Part shown: positions 11 through 9,855 of the stretch, piece after piece
Layout: each line of letters starts with the position of its first letter
How positions within the stretch are numbered: the first letter of the stretch is position 1
Source of the DNA: a virus
Taxonomy: Duplodnaviria; Caudoviricetes
DNA length: 36,677 nucleotides
IMG/VR virus record: IMGVR_UViG_3300034170_000065
Span: 1-36,677 of that record
Direction: 5' to 3' (one strand)
Notes under the pieces: generated by a model
The model's input: the letters and a program-made list of their open reading frames with translations, nothing else
Told to the model about the DNA's origin: nothing
Database searches by the model: none
Made by a program: the position numbers and the translations under genes

Positions 11-50
11 TATAATCTGGTCTATGGTTGAATGTGTATGCCAAAGGAGG
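11..50 (+). promoter_or_regulatory. -10 box (TATAAT, 11-16) and RBS (AAGGAGG, 44-50) of the protelomerase gene
   Basis: Consensus hexamer and SD 8 nt before ATG 59; the -35 would lie outside the window. Confidence 0.6.
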
Positions 51-58
51 CGCGCAAG

Positions 59-1744
59 ATGAAATCTCAAGGCACAAAGAAGGCGGGAAAAGCTGGCCAG
101 GATTCGGTAGCAGCTCAGAAGGTTAAGGCCGATCTGACGGCGAACCTGCGGGAACAAGAGCGCGTCACCTTCGGCAACGTCGGCGGAGCGACTCGCCAGA
201 AAATAGAGCTGGGCGTGATAATCACGGATCTACTGAAAGAGGTAGAGCAGATCGATAACAACGAGGATCTGACCCGCGCGGAGAAAACCAAGCGCCTCGG
301 CAGGCTGGCCCATAAGGTCAGAACAAAGCTGTATGAGGACGGGCGCAAAAAGGAGGAGGACAAGCTCAAGGCAACGACCTATCGCCGCTACCTGACGGAC
401 ATCCGCAAGGCCATCACCGCCAAAAACTGGCGCCATCACTCGATCGAGGAGGCCTGCCGGCGCCTGGCCAAGCGCCACCCTAAATACGCAGATCAGCTCT
501 TGGCCATGGCTAAGATCGAGGACATTACGCCGCTCCGGATCGCCCACCGCGACCTAAAAAACGAGATCCGCCGCGATGGTGATAACGAGGCCTACATGGC
601 CGTGCGTGACATGAAGCTCGACCACGAAATCATGCGCCACCTTGCGTTACCGCCAGTTACCCGTGACCAGCTCGCCGAAAATGCGGCAGACGTACTCGAG
701 CACAAGGCCACCAACACGATCGAGATCAACTACCACTGGCTTGTAAAGACCGCCAGCGAGCTCTTGGCCGCCCAGCAGCTACGCAGCGACGGATCTGCCG
801 CGCCGTTTTACTCCTACCTTGCTCTCGGGATCGCCATTGCCACCGGGCGCCGTGCTGTCGAAGTGCTCAAGCAAGGAAGGTTCAAAAAGGTCGGCGACTT
901 TGAGCTCGAATTCAGCGGCCAGGCCAAGCAGCGCGCCGGCGTCGACTACAGCTCTAGCTATCGGATCTACACCTTGCTCGATGCCGATACCGTGCTCGAT
1001 GCCATCAAGCGCTTGCGAGCAATGCCGGAGGTAATCGACCTGCAGGATAAGGACAACACCGAAATAAACCGGCGCACGGCGAAGACTCTCAACACCTTGA
1101 CCAAGCGCATTTTCAAGAATGACGAGCGGGTTTTTAGGGACTCCCGCGCTATTTGGGCTCGGATCGTTTTTGAATCCCACTTCAAGCGGGACCCGCGCTG
1201 GCTCAAGGTGAACGAGGAGGTTTTCTGGCGTGAGCAGCTTGGCCATGAGGACATGGATACGCAGGAGAGTTACAAGCAGTTCAAGATCGACTATACCGCA
1301 CCGCCAGCCGAGGCCGAGGGCGCGAGCCGTTTTTCAAGTCGCCTCGAGGCACTCGAGGCACTCGATTCGCACCCCAGCATCCAGGGGCGCGAAGCAATGG
1401 AAAAAATTCACTCCTGGGTTAAAGCGACTATCAAGGAAGAGCCGGCGGCGCGGATCATTCAACGAACGATCGCAACGAACGTCGGCAGCTACCGCCCGAT
1501 AATCAAAGAGTACCTCGATGTTGCATCGGAGGCCCTGGCCAGCCCTAGCCGCCCGCTAAGTGCCATTGCCGCCGAAGTGCCGGCTGAGGTGGTGAAGGCT
1601 AAGCCGCACTTGGTTACACATAAAAACGATGATGGTCAGTGGGTTGCAGTGATCAGTGTCAACGGTGTCGAAGTTGCCAGGGCCGAAGACCCGGACCGCA
1701 TGGCCGCCAGCAAAACCGCTTTCGCTATGATTGCGAAGTCCTGA
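59..1744 (+). CDS. telN: Protelomerase (telomere resolvase)
   Basis: Motifs ATGRRAVEV, FSGQAKQR, FRDSRAIWAR, LGHEDMDTQESY carry the R-K-R-H-Y catalytic set of TelN/TelK; start moved to ATG 59 after AAGGAGG. Confidence 0.95.
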   Translation: MKSQGTKKAGKAGQDSVAAQKVKADLTANLREQERVTFGNVGGATRQKIELGVIITDLLKEVEQIDNNEDLTRAEKTKRLGRLAHKVRTKLYEDGRKKEEDKLKATTYRRYLTDIRKAITAKNWRHHSIEEACRRLAKRHPKYADQLLAMAKIEDITPLRIAHRDLKNEIRRDGDNEAYMAVRDMKLDHEIMRHLALPPVTRDQLAENAADVLEHKATNTIEINYHWLVKTASELLAAQQLRSDGSAAPFYSYLALGIAIATGRRAVEVLKQGRFKKVGDFELEFSGQAKQRAGVDYSSSYRIYTLLDADTVLDAIKRLRAMPEVIDLQDKDNTEINRRTAKTLNTLTKRIFKNDERVFRDSRAIWARIVFESHFKRDPRWLKVNEEVFWREQLGHEDMDTQESYKQFKIDYTAPPAEAEGASRFSSRLEALEALDSHPSIQGREAMEKIHSWVKATIKEEPAARIIQRTIATNVGSYRPIIKEYLDVASEALASPSRPLSAIAAEVPAEVVKAKPHLVTHKNDDGQWVAVISVNGVEVARAEDPDRMAASKTAFAMIAKS

Positions 1745-1985
1745 TGTGATGCACGTTCTCTGACGCTTTTGGTGCCGGGGCATACGCCACCGGCACCGAC
1801 TCCCCTACCTGCCCCGCCAGATCGAGCGCCTCTAGCGCTTTCCCCACCTCTTGACGCATCAAATCGTTTACTTCCATAACGCTGGCCAAATCGGCGTTTG
1901 GTCCCGCCTTTGCCATCAACCCTAGTGCCGCTTCAATCCGATGAAGCCGGCGCGCTGCTTGCTCGATGTGTTCCATGTAGTGCAT
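1725..1985 (-). CDS. Small helical orphan protein (86 aa), candidate SOS-induced antirepressor
   Basis: Purine-rich RBS, LexA box 40 nt upstream, position between tel and repA; function inferred. Confidence 0.65.
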   Translation of the reverse strand: MHYMEHIEQAARRLHRIEAALGLMAKAGPNADLASVMEVNDLMRQEVGKALEALDLAGQVGESVPVAYAPAPKASENVHHIRTSQS

Positions 1986-2025
1986 TTGGTAGCCCTTCCC
2001 TATTTCCGTGCTGGCACTTTAACCA

Positions 2026-2041
2026 CTGTATTTCTATACAG
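2026..2041. promoter_or_regulatory. LexA (SOS) box CTGTATTTCTATACAG
   Basis: Exact CTGT-N8-ACAG with AT-rich spacer; palindrome extends to CACTGTAT..ATACAGTG; overlaps a minus-strand TACACT -10-like hexamer. Confidence 0.88.
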
Positions 2042-2048
2042 TGTAATA

Positions 2049-5000
2049 CTAGTGCGCTCCTTGGTGTAGCCGTTGCGCGTAAGCAAGCATGAAGCCGATT
2101 TGCTTCTCGTCTGCCCCGTCCCGAGAGAGGCCAATTGCCACCTCGGGCGCGAGAGCTTCTACCAAAGCAGCAATTGATGCACCGAGAGGATTGAAAGAGC
2201 GACGAGCGGCAGCGTAAATACGATTGCGGACATCAAGGGGATACTTTTCATCTGACGCTATACCCTCACTCTGCAAAGTCTCCCCCTCGACTGCTGGCGC
2301 GGCCTCTAGGCCGGGTTTTGGCTGGTGCGCTGAGCTGCTGTGCTCATGGGTTGTCAGTGAGTGAACGCCGATGGCCGAGCGGTTTGTCACGTACTGCGAC
2401 ATAAACGACCAGTGCTCAGGGTTGATCTGATACAGCACTCGACCGTGGGACTTGCGGTTTTTCACGCCCAGGCCAATTTTGACCAAGATCGACTTAACAA
2501 GCGTGGTCGCACAGCCGCGTTTTCCACCAAATTTGGCCAGTTTCCCCAGCTTGAGCGAGTTGTAGAGCTCTACCGACTCCTGTGAGGTGTGGATGCGGTC
2601 CAAAATTTCGCGGCAGGCGTCGGCTGAGAACTCTCCAGCGCCCGTTATGGGGTCGAGCCCTAGCGTGGTGAAGGTTTCGAGCAGAAACGCCCTTGTGGCC
2701 GTTTTGAAGCGGGTTTTAGACAGGACCACCCGCGCCTTGCGCTGGGCCTTGTCGTAGGCTCTGGCCTGCTCCTCAGTAGATTGCAGCAGTTCCAGGGCGA
2801 TAACCTTCGAAATACCGCGATCGTCGTAAAATGCCACGTCGTCAGGCGTGATCTCAGAAACCCCGAGCTGGTGCTCGATCTGATAGCGGTCCATCTGCGC
2901 CGCTTCCTCCTCGCTGCGCACTTCCATGCGGTCAAGTTTGGAAAATTGCTCATCAGTTGGGGTCTGTACGCTTTCGATCAATTCCATGCGCCGCCCGAAC
3001 ACCAACTGGCCGCCTAGCTTGCGATTTTTGCGGGAGGCCCGTGCGAGCAGCTCGTCGGTGGCCATGCGAACGACCTTGTAGCCGTCCGCGTGCAGCATCA
3101 TCAGTAGGTTGTTGGCGAAATTGTTCTTGGCGCGGTTTTCGCTCGAGGTGCTGGCGAGGAAAAGCTCGTCGAAAGCGGTTTTCTGCCGGCGCAGCAATAT
3201 CTCTGTGGTCGTTTCTTCAAATTCGCAGCTGATGGCATCAGCAGCCAGCCAGCCGCGATAAATCGCCTCGCGGTCTGTTTCGCGCTGGGTGTTTGTGTGG
3301 CCGATACCGATCAGGTAGTTACGGGCTGTGCGATCGCGGCGGAGCATTTGAACAGCATCGCTCGGGCCGATCGTATTGCCGCTGAAAATACCAATGTGGT
3401 GCTGAAAATGCGGGATTGTCATCGACACGCCCGAGGAAATCGCCGGCGAGTAGATCAGCGCGTCATAGTGAACGGCCTCGCCGCACGGATCGGCGAGGAA
3501 CGCGTCGACCGCTGGGTCTGATTTTGAGTCGCGATGAATCAATAGGAGCTTGGTTTCTGGCCGTTTTTCGAGGACAAGGGCCGCGAGCTTTTTGGCGCTT
3601 TCTGCTGAATCGTTGGCCACCAATACGCGGTTGCCGGCGAGGATCAGGTCGAGCGCTTTCTGCCAAACCGTGTCAGTGTCGGAGTGGGTCACTGTGATGT
3701 GGCTCATAGAGCCGGTGACATCGATAATCGTGATCGGGCGGCCTGGTGCTGCCTCCTCGCACAAGCGGATCACGGAATCGTTGGCGTCAGCGTCACAAAG
3801 CAAAACCCGTTTGGCGCTGGCCATGGCCTCGAGTAGCGCGTCCATTACACGAACAGGCGAATCAACCGGGCCTGTAGTGGTGTGGCGGATAACCTGGCTC
3901 GCCTCGTCGATGCACAGTGTGTCGATGGTGGTGAACCAACTACGATCATCACGGTTATAAAAACGGTCCTTGGTCAGTGAGTTAACGCAGCAGGCCAGAT
4001 GGGTTACATCGAGCATTTCAGCAGATGTAACTTGCTGGTAATGCTGGATATTCAAGCGGCTTGCAGCGTCATCGAGCAGGCTGATTCGGTGGGCGATGTA
4101 GGCGGCCCGTGGCGAGTTCTGCATTACCGGAGCGATCAATCCCTCGGTTTTTCGGGAGCCCATGGGCGCCCGGACGATGACAAAACCCTCGAGTGACTCC
4201 ACCAGATCCGCAATGTGGTCAGGCAGCACGGTGCCGCCGTGGCTGGCCACGACGCCAGGCATTTTCAGGTAGCGAACGTTAGGTTTTGCCAGGGCAGCAG
4301 CGGAAAAACCGCGCAGCTCCTGCACCTCGCTCAGTTTCAGCTTGGCCAGCCATACCGCGCGGCGCCTGATCTTGAACGTGGAGAAGTTGAACCCGGGCGG
4401 TAGTTCATCGATCACGCGGTCGATCACCTGCCTGGTGCTGAACTTGATCGGGACGAGCAACATACCGGCGCCGATGGCGTCAAGCGCCGCTTTCTCGGCT
4501 GATAGGCCGCTGATAGAGATCCGCTGTAGGCGGTACTCGAAATAGTCTTTGGCCGACTTGTAGGAGTCACGCGCTCGAAGGGCCTTAGCCATGGCCTTGA
4601 GGCCGAAAAGACAGTGGTAGTCATTCCAGTCGGTAGGGCCTTCGTAGGCCAGGCGGAACTTGTTGAGCTCCTCCTCGCCGAGATCCTCGAAGGATGGCAG
4701 CACGGCCCAATGCTCAAAGTCTCGGTGAATATCCAGGGCGGCCAGGCGCCCGGCGTTGCCGGATCGGGACCATTGGTCATCATCGGCAGCGTTGATAATG
4801 CGCAGCTTTTCATGGCGACGTTTATAGAGCTGGATCACTTTGCGAAGGTTACCGACGCTGAACGTGATAATCACGGCAACTTCATTTGATGCTGAATGCT
4901 CCGCGAGGAAAACGCTTGCGCCTGTGGCGAAGCCTTCGACGGCATACACACGCTTGGCGCCTTCAATGTCGCCAATGATGCAGTGAAGGCCATCCATTTT

Positions 5001-5789
5001 AACGCCGGTGCCCTGGTACTTGCTTCGGTCGTAGATCCGTTGCAGGCCGCCGAAGTCGCCGTCGATATTGAGCATCGGCACAGCAGTGAAAATGCCGTGA
5101 CGATCACGCATACGCTTTAATTGCACGAATTGAGCAATATCGCCGATCTGCTTTCGCTGTAGATAAGGGGCGCTACCGTCCTCGATGCCGAGCAGCTCTA
5201 CCGTGTCGGTGTCTTCGGCCTGGGTGCGTTTGTCGCGCAGGTACTTGAATTCAACGGCGCCGCCCCTGAACCACACTTGTTCGTAGGCATCACGCTCGGC
5301 CTCGGCGCGTGCAAGGATCAGCGCCTCAAGCCGGTCGGCCTCGGCGCGTTTACGGGCGCGCTCCTCGCTCTTGGCCGCCTGGGCCTTTTTCCATTCTTCA
5401 TGCTTGCTGTCGCAAACGAGGCCGCGATCGCGCTCGTACATTTCCAGCAGGGCCGAGAAGCCAGACCAGACGCTCGAGCCTATGGACGCGTTGTTGTTGT
5501 TAAAGGTGAGTTGCGGGAGCTCTTTGCCGTTGTCCAGCTTATAGAGCTGGCCCCACACCATCAGCTTGCCATTCTGCTTTTTGTCGGTCGCGCCGATTTT
5601 TCGGCGGTACTTGGTGCCCTTGCCTACCGAGTAGGTGACGTCATTGCAGATTGAGGCCCAGTCGACGCCGACTTGACTCGCCGTGTCGGCGATCTCGTTA
5701 AAGCAGTAGTCGAGCAACGAATCGGGGTTCGAGTGAAAGCGATCCTCATAGAAGGATTGCAAGCCTGTGGTTTTGTCTAAATCGGTCAT
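2049..5789 (-). CDS. repA: Multifunctional replication protein RepA (Toprim primase + helicase)
   Basis: AVEGFATGAS and ADDD Toprim motifs; APMGSRKT Walker A; CIDEASQ Walker B; YSPAISSGVS; start MTDLDK after AAGGGA. Confidence 0.9.
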   Translation of the reverse strand: MTDLDKTTGLQSFYEDRFHSNPDSLLDYCFNEIADTASQVGVDWASICNDVTYSVGKGTKYRRKIGATDKKQNGKLMVWGQLYKLDNGKELPQLTFNNNNASIGSSVWSGFSALLEMYERDRGLVCDSKHEEWKKAQAAKSEERARKRAEADRLEALILARAEAERDAYEQVWFRGGAVEFKYLRDKRTQAEDTDTVELLGIEDGSAPYLQRKQIGDIAQFVQLKRMRDRHGIFTAVPMLNIDGDFGGLQRIYDRSKYQGTGVKMDGLHCIIGDIEGAKRVYAVEGFATGASVFLAEHSASNEVAVIITFSVGNLRKVIQLYKRRHEKLRIINAADDDQWSRSGNAGRLAALDIHRDFEHWAVLPSFEDLGEEELNKFRLAYEGPTDWNDYHCLFGLKAMAKALRARDSYKSAKDYFEYRLQRISISGLSAEKAALDAIGAGMLLVPIKFSTRQVIDRVIDELPPGFNFSTFKIRRRAVWLAKLKLSEVQELRGFSAAALAKPNVRYLKMPGVVASHGGTVLPDHIADLVESLEGFVIVRAPMGSRKTEGLIAPVMQNSPRAAYIAHRISLLDDAASRLNIQHYQQVTSAEMLDVTHLACCVNSLTKDRFYNRDDRSWFTTIDTLCIDEASQVIRHTTTGPVDSPVRVMDALLEAMASAKRVLLCDADANDSVIRLCEEAAPGRPITIIDVTGSMSHITVTHSDTDTVWQKALDLILAGNRVLVANDSAESAKKLAALVLEKRPETKLLLIHRDSKSDPAVDAFLADPCGEAVHYDALIYSPAISSGVSMTIPHFQHHIGIFSGNTIGPSDAVQMLRRDRTARNYLIGIGHTNTQRETDREAIYRGWLAADAISCEFEETTTEILLRRQKTAFDELFLASTSSENRAKNNFANNLLMMLHADGYKVVRMATDELLARASRKNRKLGGQLVFGRRMELIESVQTPTDEQFSKLDRMEVRSEEEAAQMDRYQIEHQLGVSEITPDDVAFYDDRGISKVIALELLQSTEEQARAYDKAQRKARVVLSKTRFKTATRAFLLETFTTLGLDPITGAGEFSADACREILDRIHTSQESVELYNSLKLGKLAKFGGKRGCATTLVKSILVKIGLGVKNRKSHGRVLYQINPEHWSFMSQYVTNRSAIGVHSLTTHEHSSSAHQPKPGLEAAPAVEGETLQSEGIASDEKYPLDVRNRIYAAARRSFNPLGASIAALVEALAPEVAIGLSRDGADEKQIGFMLAYAQRLHQGAH

Positions 5790-5799
5790 TTCGTCCCTT

Positions 5800-5831
5800 G
5801 CGCAAAAACGCAAAGACGCAAAAACGCTTAT
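5800..5831. repeat. 8-bp tandem array 1 (GCGCAAAA ACGCAAAG ACGCAAAA ACGCTTAT), putative centromere/operator
   Basis: Read directly; 24 nt identical to the parA-proximal array. Confidence 0.8.
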
Positions 5832-5833
5832 GC

Positions 5834-5861
5834 TTGACACCCCAAGCGTCAGGCCTAAACT
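5834..5861 (+). promoter_or_regulatory. Sigma70 promoter TTGACA-N16-TAAACT, antisense to the repA leader
   Basis: Perfect -35 and near-consensus -10. Confidence 0.7.
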
Positions 5862-5867
5862 GATGGC

Positions 5868-6008
5868 GTGTAGCAACACGTCCGCCTTTTCAAGATGCCT
5901 GCCCGCTAAAACAGACAACTCGATATTGCAAGGTTGGATCAGTAAGCCCCTTTGTGGGGAAATTCAAGCAGAAAGGCTGGGGCCGGAAACCCCGGCCTTT
6001 TTGCTTTT
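5868..6008 (+). ncRNA. Predicted ~140-nt countertranscript RNA over the repA leader
   Basis: Bounded by the promoter at 5834-5861 and the hairpin/T tract at 5972-6008; no convincing CDS. Confidence 0.55.
5972..6008 (+). terminator. Intrinsic terminator
   Basis: AAAGGCTGGGG-ccggaaa-CCCCGGCCTTT followed by TTGCTTTT. Confidence 0.65.
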
Positions 6009-6063: not shown

Positions 6064-6101
6064 CTCTGTATTCAGTGGAAAACTTTTCTCTGTTTATCGA
6101 A
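6064..6101. promoter_or_regulatory. Putative repressor operators upstream of the repA leader (CTCTGTATTCAGTG, CTCTGTTTATCGAA)
   Basis: 14-bp imperfect palindromes matching those at 6792-6893. Confidence 0.5.
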
Positions 6102-6759
6102 TGATGCCCCGGGAGGTCCTCATCACCATGCCTATGACTACCCCAATCGCTCGAAAATTGCCATCAATCTGCTGCACGGGAAACTGCGGATTCAGTGCGC
6201 GCAAATAGTTCTGAGATCCATCCTGAACAAGTTTTTTGAATGTTGGCGCGGTTGGCTCGGCGGTGTACCCGATCACAAAATCGTTGACTTGGGGCTCTTG
6301 GCTTGGGTCGATGAAAATCAGGGCGCCGGTTGGAAAGGCCGGGCCTGCGGGTGCGTGCATCGATTCATCACGGACGCGCAGAAAGAACCCTCGAGGCGTC
6401 TGTGTATCGAGTGGTATTTCCCACGGAGTACCGCTTGGAAGCCTTGATATATCAGGGTTTTGCGCCCATTCGGCGGCCATTTCCCAAGGCACAACCGGCG
6501 CTCTTTTTGAGTGCTCAGACGGTGCCAGGGGCGAATTAGGCGACGCGCTTTCCTCGATCAGCTTGTCGATCGTTGTGCCAAAAGCGGCAGCGATCGCATA
6601 AGCCTTGTCCACCGAAGGGTTTGAATTTTCCTTTTCAATGTCGCTCACGTACCCGGTATAGATCTGTCCGCCCGTCTCATCGCAGAGCCGTTGCATGGAC
6701 CATCCGAGTTCTCGGCGACGCCGCAATACAGCGGGGCCAATCGTTATCTGTTTCTTCAT
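6094..6759 (-). CDS. cI: CI-like repressor (HTH_XRE + S24 peptidase-fold domain)
   Basis: RRRELGWSMQRL..YVSDIEKENSNPS HTH; FFLRVRDESM and TFKKLVQDG S24 motifs; AGGAGG RBS before MKKQ. Confidence 0.92.
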   Translation of the reverse strand: MKKQITIGPAVLRRRRELGWSMQRLCDETGGQIYTGYVSDIEKENSNPSVDKAYAIAAAFGTTIDKLIEESASPNSPLAPSEHSKRAPVVPWEMAAEWAQNPDISRLPSGTPWEIPLDTQTPRGFFLRVRDESMHAPAGPAFPTGALIFIDPSQEPQVNDFVIGYTAEPTAPTFKKLVQDGSQNYLRALNPQFPVQQIDGNFRAIGVVIGMVMRTSRGIIR

Positions 6760-6791: not shown

Positions 6792-6893
6792 CTCTGAATG
6801 CTGAACGCATCCATTCCGCATGGAGAGATTTTCTTGCGTATTTCACTCTGTATATAGAGAATGTGGGTCAATCCACATTTGCCCCATACAGAG
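6792..6893. promoter_or_regulatory. Immunity region with four putative 14-bp operators (consensus ~CTCTGTATNCAGAG)
   Basis: 6792-6805, 6814-6827, 6846-6859 (CTCTGTATATAGAG) and 6880-6893, between divergent cI and the early operon. Confidence 0.6.
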
Positions 6894-7849: not shown

Positions 7850-8099
7850 TTGGATGAAACTTTTCGTGCTCTCGCCCCATATTCGCGTGCTGGCCATCAA
7901 CGAGGCGCCAGCCGGTGGCCCCGCTGGCGTCGTTCGCCTTGAGGCCCGCGTTTTTGGTCATAGCGTCGAACGGCAATACGGACACGCGACGCAGGACGAG
8001 GCTGATTTTGAGTTCGGGCGCCTCGACCCCGTGTCTGTCGCTGACTGGCTGCAAAGCGAAGGCGCGAAGCGGGAGGCCGAACATGCCCGACGCATGTGA
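7842..8099 (+). CDS. Hypothetical protein
   Basis: GGAGG RBS; coupled in operon. Confidence 0.65.
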   Translation: MVDWMKLFVLSPHIRVLAINEAPAGGPAGVVRLEARVFGHSVERQYGHATQDEADFEFGRLDPVSVADWLQSEGAKREAEHARRM

Positions 8100-8322
8100 C
8101 TTCATGGTCGATCTACAGCTCGACGCTGCGGATTTGTTCATGGCCAACCGTGTGGCCGCGTCGATGACCATCGCCGCCGGTTCGGCTGATTGCATTGCCT
8201 GCGGCGATCCTATTGCGGCAAGTCGCCTCGAGGCAGCACCTGAGGCTTGCCGCTGCGTTCCCTGCCAAACCCTTTTTGAATTCCACGGGAGCCGCGCGTC
8301 ATGGAAGCCCGTCAAGTATTGA
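8083..8322 (+). CDS. TraR/DksA C4 zinc-finger protein
   Basis: N-terminal DxxD (MPDACD); CIACGDPI..RLEAAPEACRCVPCQ; GGGAGG RBS. Confidence 0.9.
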   Translation: MPDACDFMVDLQLDAADLFMANRVAASMTIAAGSADCIACGDPIAASRLEAAPEACRCVPCQTLFEFHGSRASWKPVKY

Positions 8323-9545: not shown

Positions 9546-9836
9546 ATGAATGTTCCTGAGTTGGAAAATTTTCTAAAGGGCCTGTTGCGCGGGGAATTCT
9601 CTAATCTGACCATATCGTTCAATGAGCACAGCGATTCCCGCCTGACGGCTGAGAAGGCCGTCGAGTATGGCGACTATGATCGCGTGCAGTGGGTGAGCGA
9701 CGAGGAGAAGGTCAGAGCTATCGAGGCGAATAGCGTTTGGATGCTGCAATGGTATCCAGACACGCCCATCGGATCTCATACGATCGCAGCGTCGACTTTG
9801 ACCGCTTGCCTGGATGCTCTACAGGACTTTAAGTGA
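9546..9836 (+). CDS. Hypothetical phage protein
   Basis: GGAG RBS; WMLQWYPDTPIG motif. Confidence 0.75.
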   Translation: MNVPELENFLKGLLRGEFSNLTISFNEHSDSRLTAEKAVEYGDYDRVQWVSDEEKVRAIEANSVWMLQWYPDTPIGSHTIAASTLTACLDALQDFK

Positions 9837-9855
9837 ATAAATATTGTGAAAAGGC

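Follow-up and report, generated by a model that had tools for sequence, protein, structure and literature searches.

A candidate LexA-gated, Qtip-like antirepressor gene between tel and repA in HAP-1-like linear phage-plasmids

Small genes lying between repA and tel, or near the par genes, of linear plasmid-like phages are known as parts of a regulatory switch. In the TF-smORF module of Silpe et al. (2023), a divergent phage transcription factor activates a small open reading frame (ORF); expression of the small ORF is independent of SOS, and the partner cI is autoproteolytic (PMC10432266). In Vibrio phage VP882, the small protein is Qtip (gp55), which is characterized by binding to the N-terminal domain of cI and by localization to the cell poles. 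There, S130 and K172 carry out the cut in cI, which falls between A91 and G92; the G92D replacement blocks cleavage, and mutation of Qtip D13 abolishes the inactivation of cI. Qtip was described in the same preprint as having no close homologs (bioRxiv 2019.12.16.877910). The 274 loci surveyed by Silpe et al. include Halomonas phage phiHAP-1 and Vibrio phage MAR. Repressors that are not proteolytic were left aside in that survey, and autoproteolysis was called from predicted catalytic sites; in its text, "LexA" appears once, in a reference (PMC10432266). HAP-1-like phages are said to have neither VqmA-Qtip nor any other TF-smORF module (PMC12802170), and "LexA" is absent from the main text and three searched supplements of that source.

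A second group of small regulators is gated by LexA. For N15 AntC, 186 Tum, and GfoA/GftA of the Gifsy phages, LexA controls a small protein that acts against a non-cleavable repressor (PMC3121763). In systems of the AntC/Tum/GftA type, a LexA operator lies over the promoter of the small gene, and the locus described here has what appears to be a matching arrangement. The likeness is one of logic; unlike the repressors in those systems, the repressor here retains an S24 domain, apparently one in decay. AntC does not appear to sit between tel and repA, since the tel-repA slot of N15 contains no LexA box.

The DNA analyzed here (the window) is a virus record of 36.7 kb (36,677 nucleotides), 96% complete by CheckV, with a GC content of 59.6%. 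It encodes a protelomerase, a RepA primase-helicase, an XRE-S24 repressor, a cII-like gene, Q, an endolysin, and ParA. Among deposited phages, its protelomerase is nearest to those of phiHAP-1 (54.5%) and VP882 (49.1%); named relatives at 55-68% are found in Pseudomonas, Stutzerimonas, and Halomonas assemblies. By these features, the window is a HAP-1-like linear phage-plasmid. A telRL palindrome was sought at its ends and not found, and no lexA gene is encoded within the 36.7 kb. A short ORF with a four-cysteine motif was spotted by eye directly before Q (window ~8092-8322, plus strand); VP882 and phiHAP-1 carry a DksA/TraR-like gene at the corresponding position.

Here, tel (32-1744, plus strand) converges on the primase-helicase gene repA (2049-5918, minus strand, with its stop codon at 2049-2051 and its true start uncertain). 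The initial annotation, made from the sequence alone, held that one gene lies between the two and that the phage transcription factor is missing. Both statements stand. The 304-bp slot contains a small ORF alone, the only conserved gene there, in the same place as the small ORF of a TF-smORF module; where that module has a divergent transcription factor, the window has a candidate LexA box instead. The ORF (1725-1985, minus strand) encodes 86 amino acids from an ATG start, shares 20 nt with the end of tel, stop codon included, and has a Shine-Dalgarno-like GGGAAGG (1994-2000, minus strand) 8 nt before the ATG. AlphaFold2 models its product, the candidate antirepressor, as two helices (residues 3-30 and 33-60) that form a hairpin, followed by a low-confidence, unstructured tail.

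This small ORF is, on the pattern of its substitutions, a real protein-coding gene under purifying selection. Compared with its homolog in the related locus L005, the part that encodes the helical core differs at 13 synonymous sites and at 0 non-synonymous ones. Of 15 pairs compared within the family, 14 have a dN/dS of at most 0.34; the exception rests on one synonymous change.

The protein had been called a helical orphan. Helical it is predicted to be, but the second word does not survive. Pfam and PHROGs scans leave the window protein unmatched, yet profile searches find a family. A search with the single sequence returns 5 relatives; a profile built from 28 slot ORFs returns 63 matches, and 26 among 50%-identity representatives, of which 3 long proteins were treated as false. 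Loci were gathered by protelomerase similarity, independent of the small gene. This gave 126 loci with tel, of which 121 reach repA, representing 91 distinct slots. A family ORF, called at 36 bits or more, is found in 74 of these 91, phiHAP-1 ORF35 included; these scores are not all independent, because the profile was built partly from the same ORFs. Across the family, the fold pattern is conserved at 10-40% identity. In most loci, the small ORF overlaps the tel stop by ~20-50 nt.

The member from phiHAP-1 (ORF35, HAPgp35) is recorded as a "hypothetical protein", with no function given. It sits in the same slot, scores 74.8 bits (with near-identical copies in the profile), and is ~16-18% identical to the window protein; a LexA box lies 27 nt upstream of it, and its partner CI is without Ala-Gly. 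Two contigs deserve separate mention, as does an oddity of assembly. The loci L059 and L062 are HAP-1-like phage contigs within assemblies labelled Spirulina subsalsa and Specibacter, probably through contamination or mis-binning. A single contig gives its locus twice, in opposite orientations (L022/L023), as expected if assembly ran through a hairpin end.

Searches beyond the family returned little. Across 48 family members, Pfam and PHROGs give scattered helical matches, with no family consistent. Foldseek, run with the small protein against viral models and the PDB, finds nothing at E <= 0.001, and the best hit of the family profile among PDB sequences (E 0.018) is a designed helical protein. 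Helical hairpins match easily by chance. In the ESM Atlas, where every match falls below 0.9, the window protein and Qtip both list a "Derepression protein" (PF25738) cluster; PF25738 is absent from the Pfam scan results. Kinship with P4 epsilon was considered and rejected: it scores 1.5-2.9 bits, other P4 segments score higher, and there is no real similarity.

A CTGT-N8-ACAG box 40 nt upstream of the small ORF had been noted, and it is present. This candidate LexA (SOS) box, CTGTATTTCTATACAG, occupies 2026-2041; 40 nt separate it from the ATG, and the repA stop lies 7 nt away on its other side. No second CTGT-N8-ACAG occurs in the window, and the small ORF is the only LexA-boxed gene in the 36.7 kb. 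The box matches 16 of 20 positions in the E. coli-type LexA consensus. A single box in a window of this size is not above chance, as shuffled windows have a mean of 0.33 and at least one is found in 27 of 100 shuffles. Its significance comes from position and conservation.

Whether homologs keep the box had been posed as a question. Almost without exception, they do. A box, defined as a CTG-N10-CAG that agrees with the LexA consensus at 12 or more of 20 positions, is found in 73 of 74 family slots; the 74th, L033, has a frameshift in tel, and its box was seen in a separate pass. Outside the slots, 2 boxes are found in 808,055 bases, one of them identical to the slot box of L022 and probably a duplicated copy. 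In the relatives, the box abuts or overlaps the repA stop. Four sequencing runs, available as contigs and silent on expression, list no variant inside the box. LexA is encoded in 4 of 4 host genomes of relatives. In the 3 Pseudomonas-type hosts, two CTG-N10-CAG boxes stand immediately before the host's own lexA; in the Halomonas host, no box is found at the same threshold within 1.5 kb of lexA.

The box had also been said to overlap a TACACT -10 hexamer. The overlap is there, since the candidate hexamer (2040-2045, minus strand) shares 2 nt with the box, but the promoter itself is not evident: a sigma-70 scan ahead of the small ORF gives no full promoter and no -35. TACACT is partly dictated by the LexA consensus itself. 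The "A" of the -10 is, however, kept on the ORF-facing side in 56 of 58 distinct upstream regions, with T at the mirror position in 2 of 58. This asymmetry fits a promoter facing the small ORF.

The presumed target of the antirepressor is the CI repressor (6094-6759, minus strand), whose 221 amino acids comprise, by domain matches, an XRE helix-turn-helix and an S24 domain, the type to which the VP882 partner CI also belongs. VP882 cI has been shown to cleave itself; the window CI is without Ala-Gly, though its Ser and Lys are kept. Specifically, it has Ala95-Ala96 at the position of Ala91-Gly92 in VP882 cI, and it retains Ser133 and Lys175. The pattern is that of the family. Ala-Gly at the aligned site is found in 0 of 62 readable family CIs (L041, frameshifted, was dropped, and 11 loci had no CI call). 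Both the catalytic Ser and Lys are kept in 15 of the 62, the window among them, and 47 have lost one or the other. At the Gly of the G-x-S motif, all 62 have Asp; Gly stands there in all 9 Ala-Gly repressors found in the 15 non-family loci. The CI of phiHAP-1 has Ala-Ala at the cleavage site, with Arg replacing the catalytic Lys, and the CI of locus L024 has an Ala-Gly one residue off register, with Thr in place of the catalytic Ser. A search of listings turned up no usable published data on the tolerance of LexA Gly85.

From these alignments, the family CI looks like a protease released from selection, and the window CI is predicted to be unable to cut itself. Residual cleavage may nevertheless occur in the window CI, which retains Ser133 and Lys175 and in which the change to Ala-Ala is mild. 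HMP1, a close relative of phiHAP-1 (92% ANI), is mitomycin-inducible (PMC9170930). A quick tree of tel with 90 rows has a single well-supported branch between the family and 16 rows outside it; MAR sits on a long branch that is unreliable. As all family loci fall on one side of that single branch, the box and the loss of Ala-Gly amount to roughly one evolutionary event, and not to 62.

Candidate operators for CI are seen in the window. Two imperfect palindromes of the CTCTGTAT type lie at 6844-6878, between cI and the divergent cII-like gene, with a geometry unlike that of the SOS box. A related CTCTGTAT-type palindrome is seen at 6064-6101, upstream of repA, and ATGTGGGTCAATCCACAT, conserved in relatives, is another candidate repressor operator. 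The candidate operators in the window contain CTGTAT.

The initial annotation described the antirepressor as apparently unrelated to Qtip. Here, the balance of evidence has moved the other way, on a weak profile match. Qtip occupies the same slot and strand, abuts the tel stop, is similar in size, and is likewise a predicted helical hairpin. Against a 101-sequence family profile, it scores 10.7 bits, which is weak, and P0085, its one full-length relative, also scores 10.7 bits. Qtip's score was reached by 0 of 2000 plain shuffles and by 3 of 2000 that preserve heptads; reversed Qtip scores 1.2. Qtip ranks first among 526 six-frame segments of VP882 (9.6 vs 4.4 bits), as the slot ORF does among 226 segments of the MAR stretch (10.4 vs 3.8 bits). 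In the other direction, a profile made from two Qtip sequences gives a best family score of 11.2 bits, compared with 5.2 for reversed controls. Qtip D13 aligns with Glu8 of the window protein, and all 48 of 48 members have D or E in this column; in the same register, the column of Qtip L28 is L or M in 47 of 48.

Other comparisons are less favorable. Alignment of the family with Qtip by hhalign gives probabilities of 1.4% and 14%. When the profile is broadened with outgroup ORFs, Qtip falls to 5.6 bits (70 of 1000 shuffles), while P0085 stays at 0 of 1000. Qtip is absent from the 26 family-profile matches among 50%-identity representatives, and no relic LexA box was found upstream of VP882 qtip. 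Weighing these sequence comparisons together, we lean modestly towards shared ancestry for the small-ORF family and Qtip. The first ESM Atlas match for Qtip is "putative Gp31". In N15, gp31 (L004 14873-15103, minus strand), which we take to be the antirepressor AntA, also sits in the tel-repA slot. It scores 4.6 bits against the family (21 of 400 shuffles), reaching 7.6 bits (1 of 400) with the broadened profile only; kinship suggested by such scores is a lead at most.

Slots outside the family vary. In MAR (L066), an unannotated 74-amino acid ORF (9560-9784, minus strand) has a 17/20 LexA box at 9831-9846, 46 nt upstream, and an adjacent divergent XRE regulator; the MAR repressor keeps Ala-Gly, Ser, and Lys, and the 74-amino acid protein is identical in the Vibrio phages VP58.5 and VHML. 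The MAR module is a candidate intermediate between LexA-only and TF-driven modules. It also implies that the box does not require a dead repressor, because in MAR the cleavage site is complete although box and similar ORF are both present. In the loci L085 (1752-1994, minus strand) and L125 (1741-1983, minus strand), a small helical ORF adjoins tel next to a divergent XRE-like gene, without a LexA box; both loci are candidates for new TF-smORF modules. L126 has an 81-amino acid ORF (1978-2223, minus strand) with a 16/20 LexA box at 2377, ~150 nt upstream, in a distant tel clade with a transposase-like gene in the slot. In L047 (9603-10692) and L044 (2006-2672), a membrane-type ORF of 172-173 amino acids lies beside a short ORF with a GG-x-DKTDPP motif, present twice in L047. 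These two slots are possibly a peptide-signaling module; their route of induction is unexplained, since they have no LexA box and their repressors are without Ala-Gly. On the family profile, the slot ORF of L085 reaches 15.0 bits; for L125, L126, and L047 the values range from -0.6 to 3.2. Finally, the slot of L043 (1801-2827) holds a resolvase-like fragment together with an XRE gene; its box is weak (13/20), and the repressor is without Ala-Gly.

The small gene of the window is thus likely, on this comparative evidence, to be a LexA-gated, Qtip-like antirepressor that inactivates the phage CI. In the lysogen, LexA would be bound to the box over the -10 region, and the small gene would be off. 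Upon DNA damage, RecA-triggered cleavage of LexA would allow the small gene to be transcribed. The box in this way predicts SOS-dependent expression, where TF-smORF expression is SOS-independent. The small protein would then bind the N-terminal DNA-binding domain of CI through the acidic residue aligned with Qtip Asp13, a step suggested by position and weak kinship. With CI inactivated, the early promoters, repA, and the Q-dependent lytic genes would be derepressed. Read-through from repA might, speculatively, add positive feedback; such read-through is possible because a promoter and terminator scan found no terminator between repA and the small gene. A complex prediction that paired 71 residues from the N-terminal domain of CI with the 64-residue core of the small protein, both as alignments, gave a score of 0.02 (mark, 0.32) and is uninformative either way. 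Arg15 of CI, invariant in 48 of 48 and matching R11 of VP882, was considered and set aside; it is probably a general residue of the XRE fold.

Four competing readings were weighed. That the sensor is host LexA, as had been supposed, gains support from a box kept across the clade while CI operators vary, and from boxes of the same type before Pseudomonas-type lexA genes; host LexA very probably controls the small gene. The palindrome could instead be an operator for the phage's own CI, as the CTGTAT in the candidate CI operators would suggest. Those sites are, however, differently spaced, and they vary among relatives even though identity between the CI DNA-binding domains is 35-100%; the slot box, by contrast, retains CTG-N10-CAG and resembles the host lexA boxes. 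CI is therefore an unlikely ligand for the box, and we give this reading almost no weight. Alternatively, the box might act mainly through transcription, by a LexA-gated antisense RNA running into tel or a roadblock at the end of repA, with the protein secondary. The overlap of the ORF with the tel stop in most loci, the missing terminator, and a box that abuts or overlaps the repA stop would all suit such an arrangement; strong purifying selection on the protein, and a fold pattern that outlasts most of its sequence identity, make it very improbable.

A more serious competitor accepts SOS induction and gives the protein another task, directed at a host target or at TelN/RepA, for example growth arrest or a switch to lytic replication. 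The small gene does lie between tel and repA, its contact with CI is a prediction, the resemblance to Qtip is weak, and VP882 has separate small growth-arrest proteins (bioRxiv 2026.07.27.740977). Against this, the small gene is the sole LexA-boxed gene in 36.7 kb and CI is without its cleavage site, which leaves no other evident route from damage to CI, and the acidic residue essential in Qtip is conserved. We consider the competitor unlikely. It is somewhat less likely still that CI continues to cut itself, at Ala-Ala or a nearby bond, and that the small protein merely speeds or sharpens induction as a second route. Ser133 and Lys175 are, after all, kept here, as both residues are in 15 of 62 family CIs, and MAR couples a boxed ORF with a complete cleavage site; but Ser or Lys is lost in 47 of 62, Asp replaces the G-x-S Gly in all 62, and G92D blocks cleavage of VP882 cI (bioRxiv 2019.12.16.877910). 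The antirepressor reading is strengthened because the partner CI lacks Ala-Gly and because of the weak kinship with Qtip, and we regard an antirepressor role for the small protein as probable.

SOS control of an antirepressor is, of course, textbook logic, which limits surprise. The regulatory logic was already known; the small-ORF family and its link to Qtip are new as far as the literature found. No published description of a LexA-boxed gene in the tel-repA slot was found in the searched, mainly open-access literature, and the family itself is unnamed and was not found described in print.

A broader history may be offered tentatively, at a little less than even confidence. Qtip may belong, as a single branch, to an old family of two-helix antirepressors that became fixed between tel and repA in telomere phages, both marine ones and those of Pseudomonas, and in which the inputs alone change. 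In the HAP-1-like phages, the input would be a LexA box only, and their CI would then have lost self-cleavage. In MAR (Vhmlvirus), the LexA box would be joined by an XRE factor, alongside a CI that can still be cleaved, and VP882 would have captured a quorum-sensing receptor. On this view, phage quorum sensing began when the promoter of an antirepressor under SOS control was rewired.

If the proposal is true, it explains how DNA damage induces linear phage-plasmids of Pseudomonas, Stutzerimonas, and Halomonas whose repressor protease is degenerate. A CI with intact Ser and Lys may, in that case, still be non-cleavable, which bears on screens that use catalytic residues alone. The family would, in turn, provide dozens of natural antirepressor-repressor pairs with which to map the Qtip-type interface, and a testable origin for phage quorum-sensing switches.
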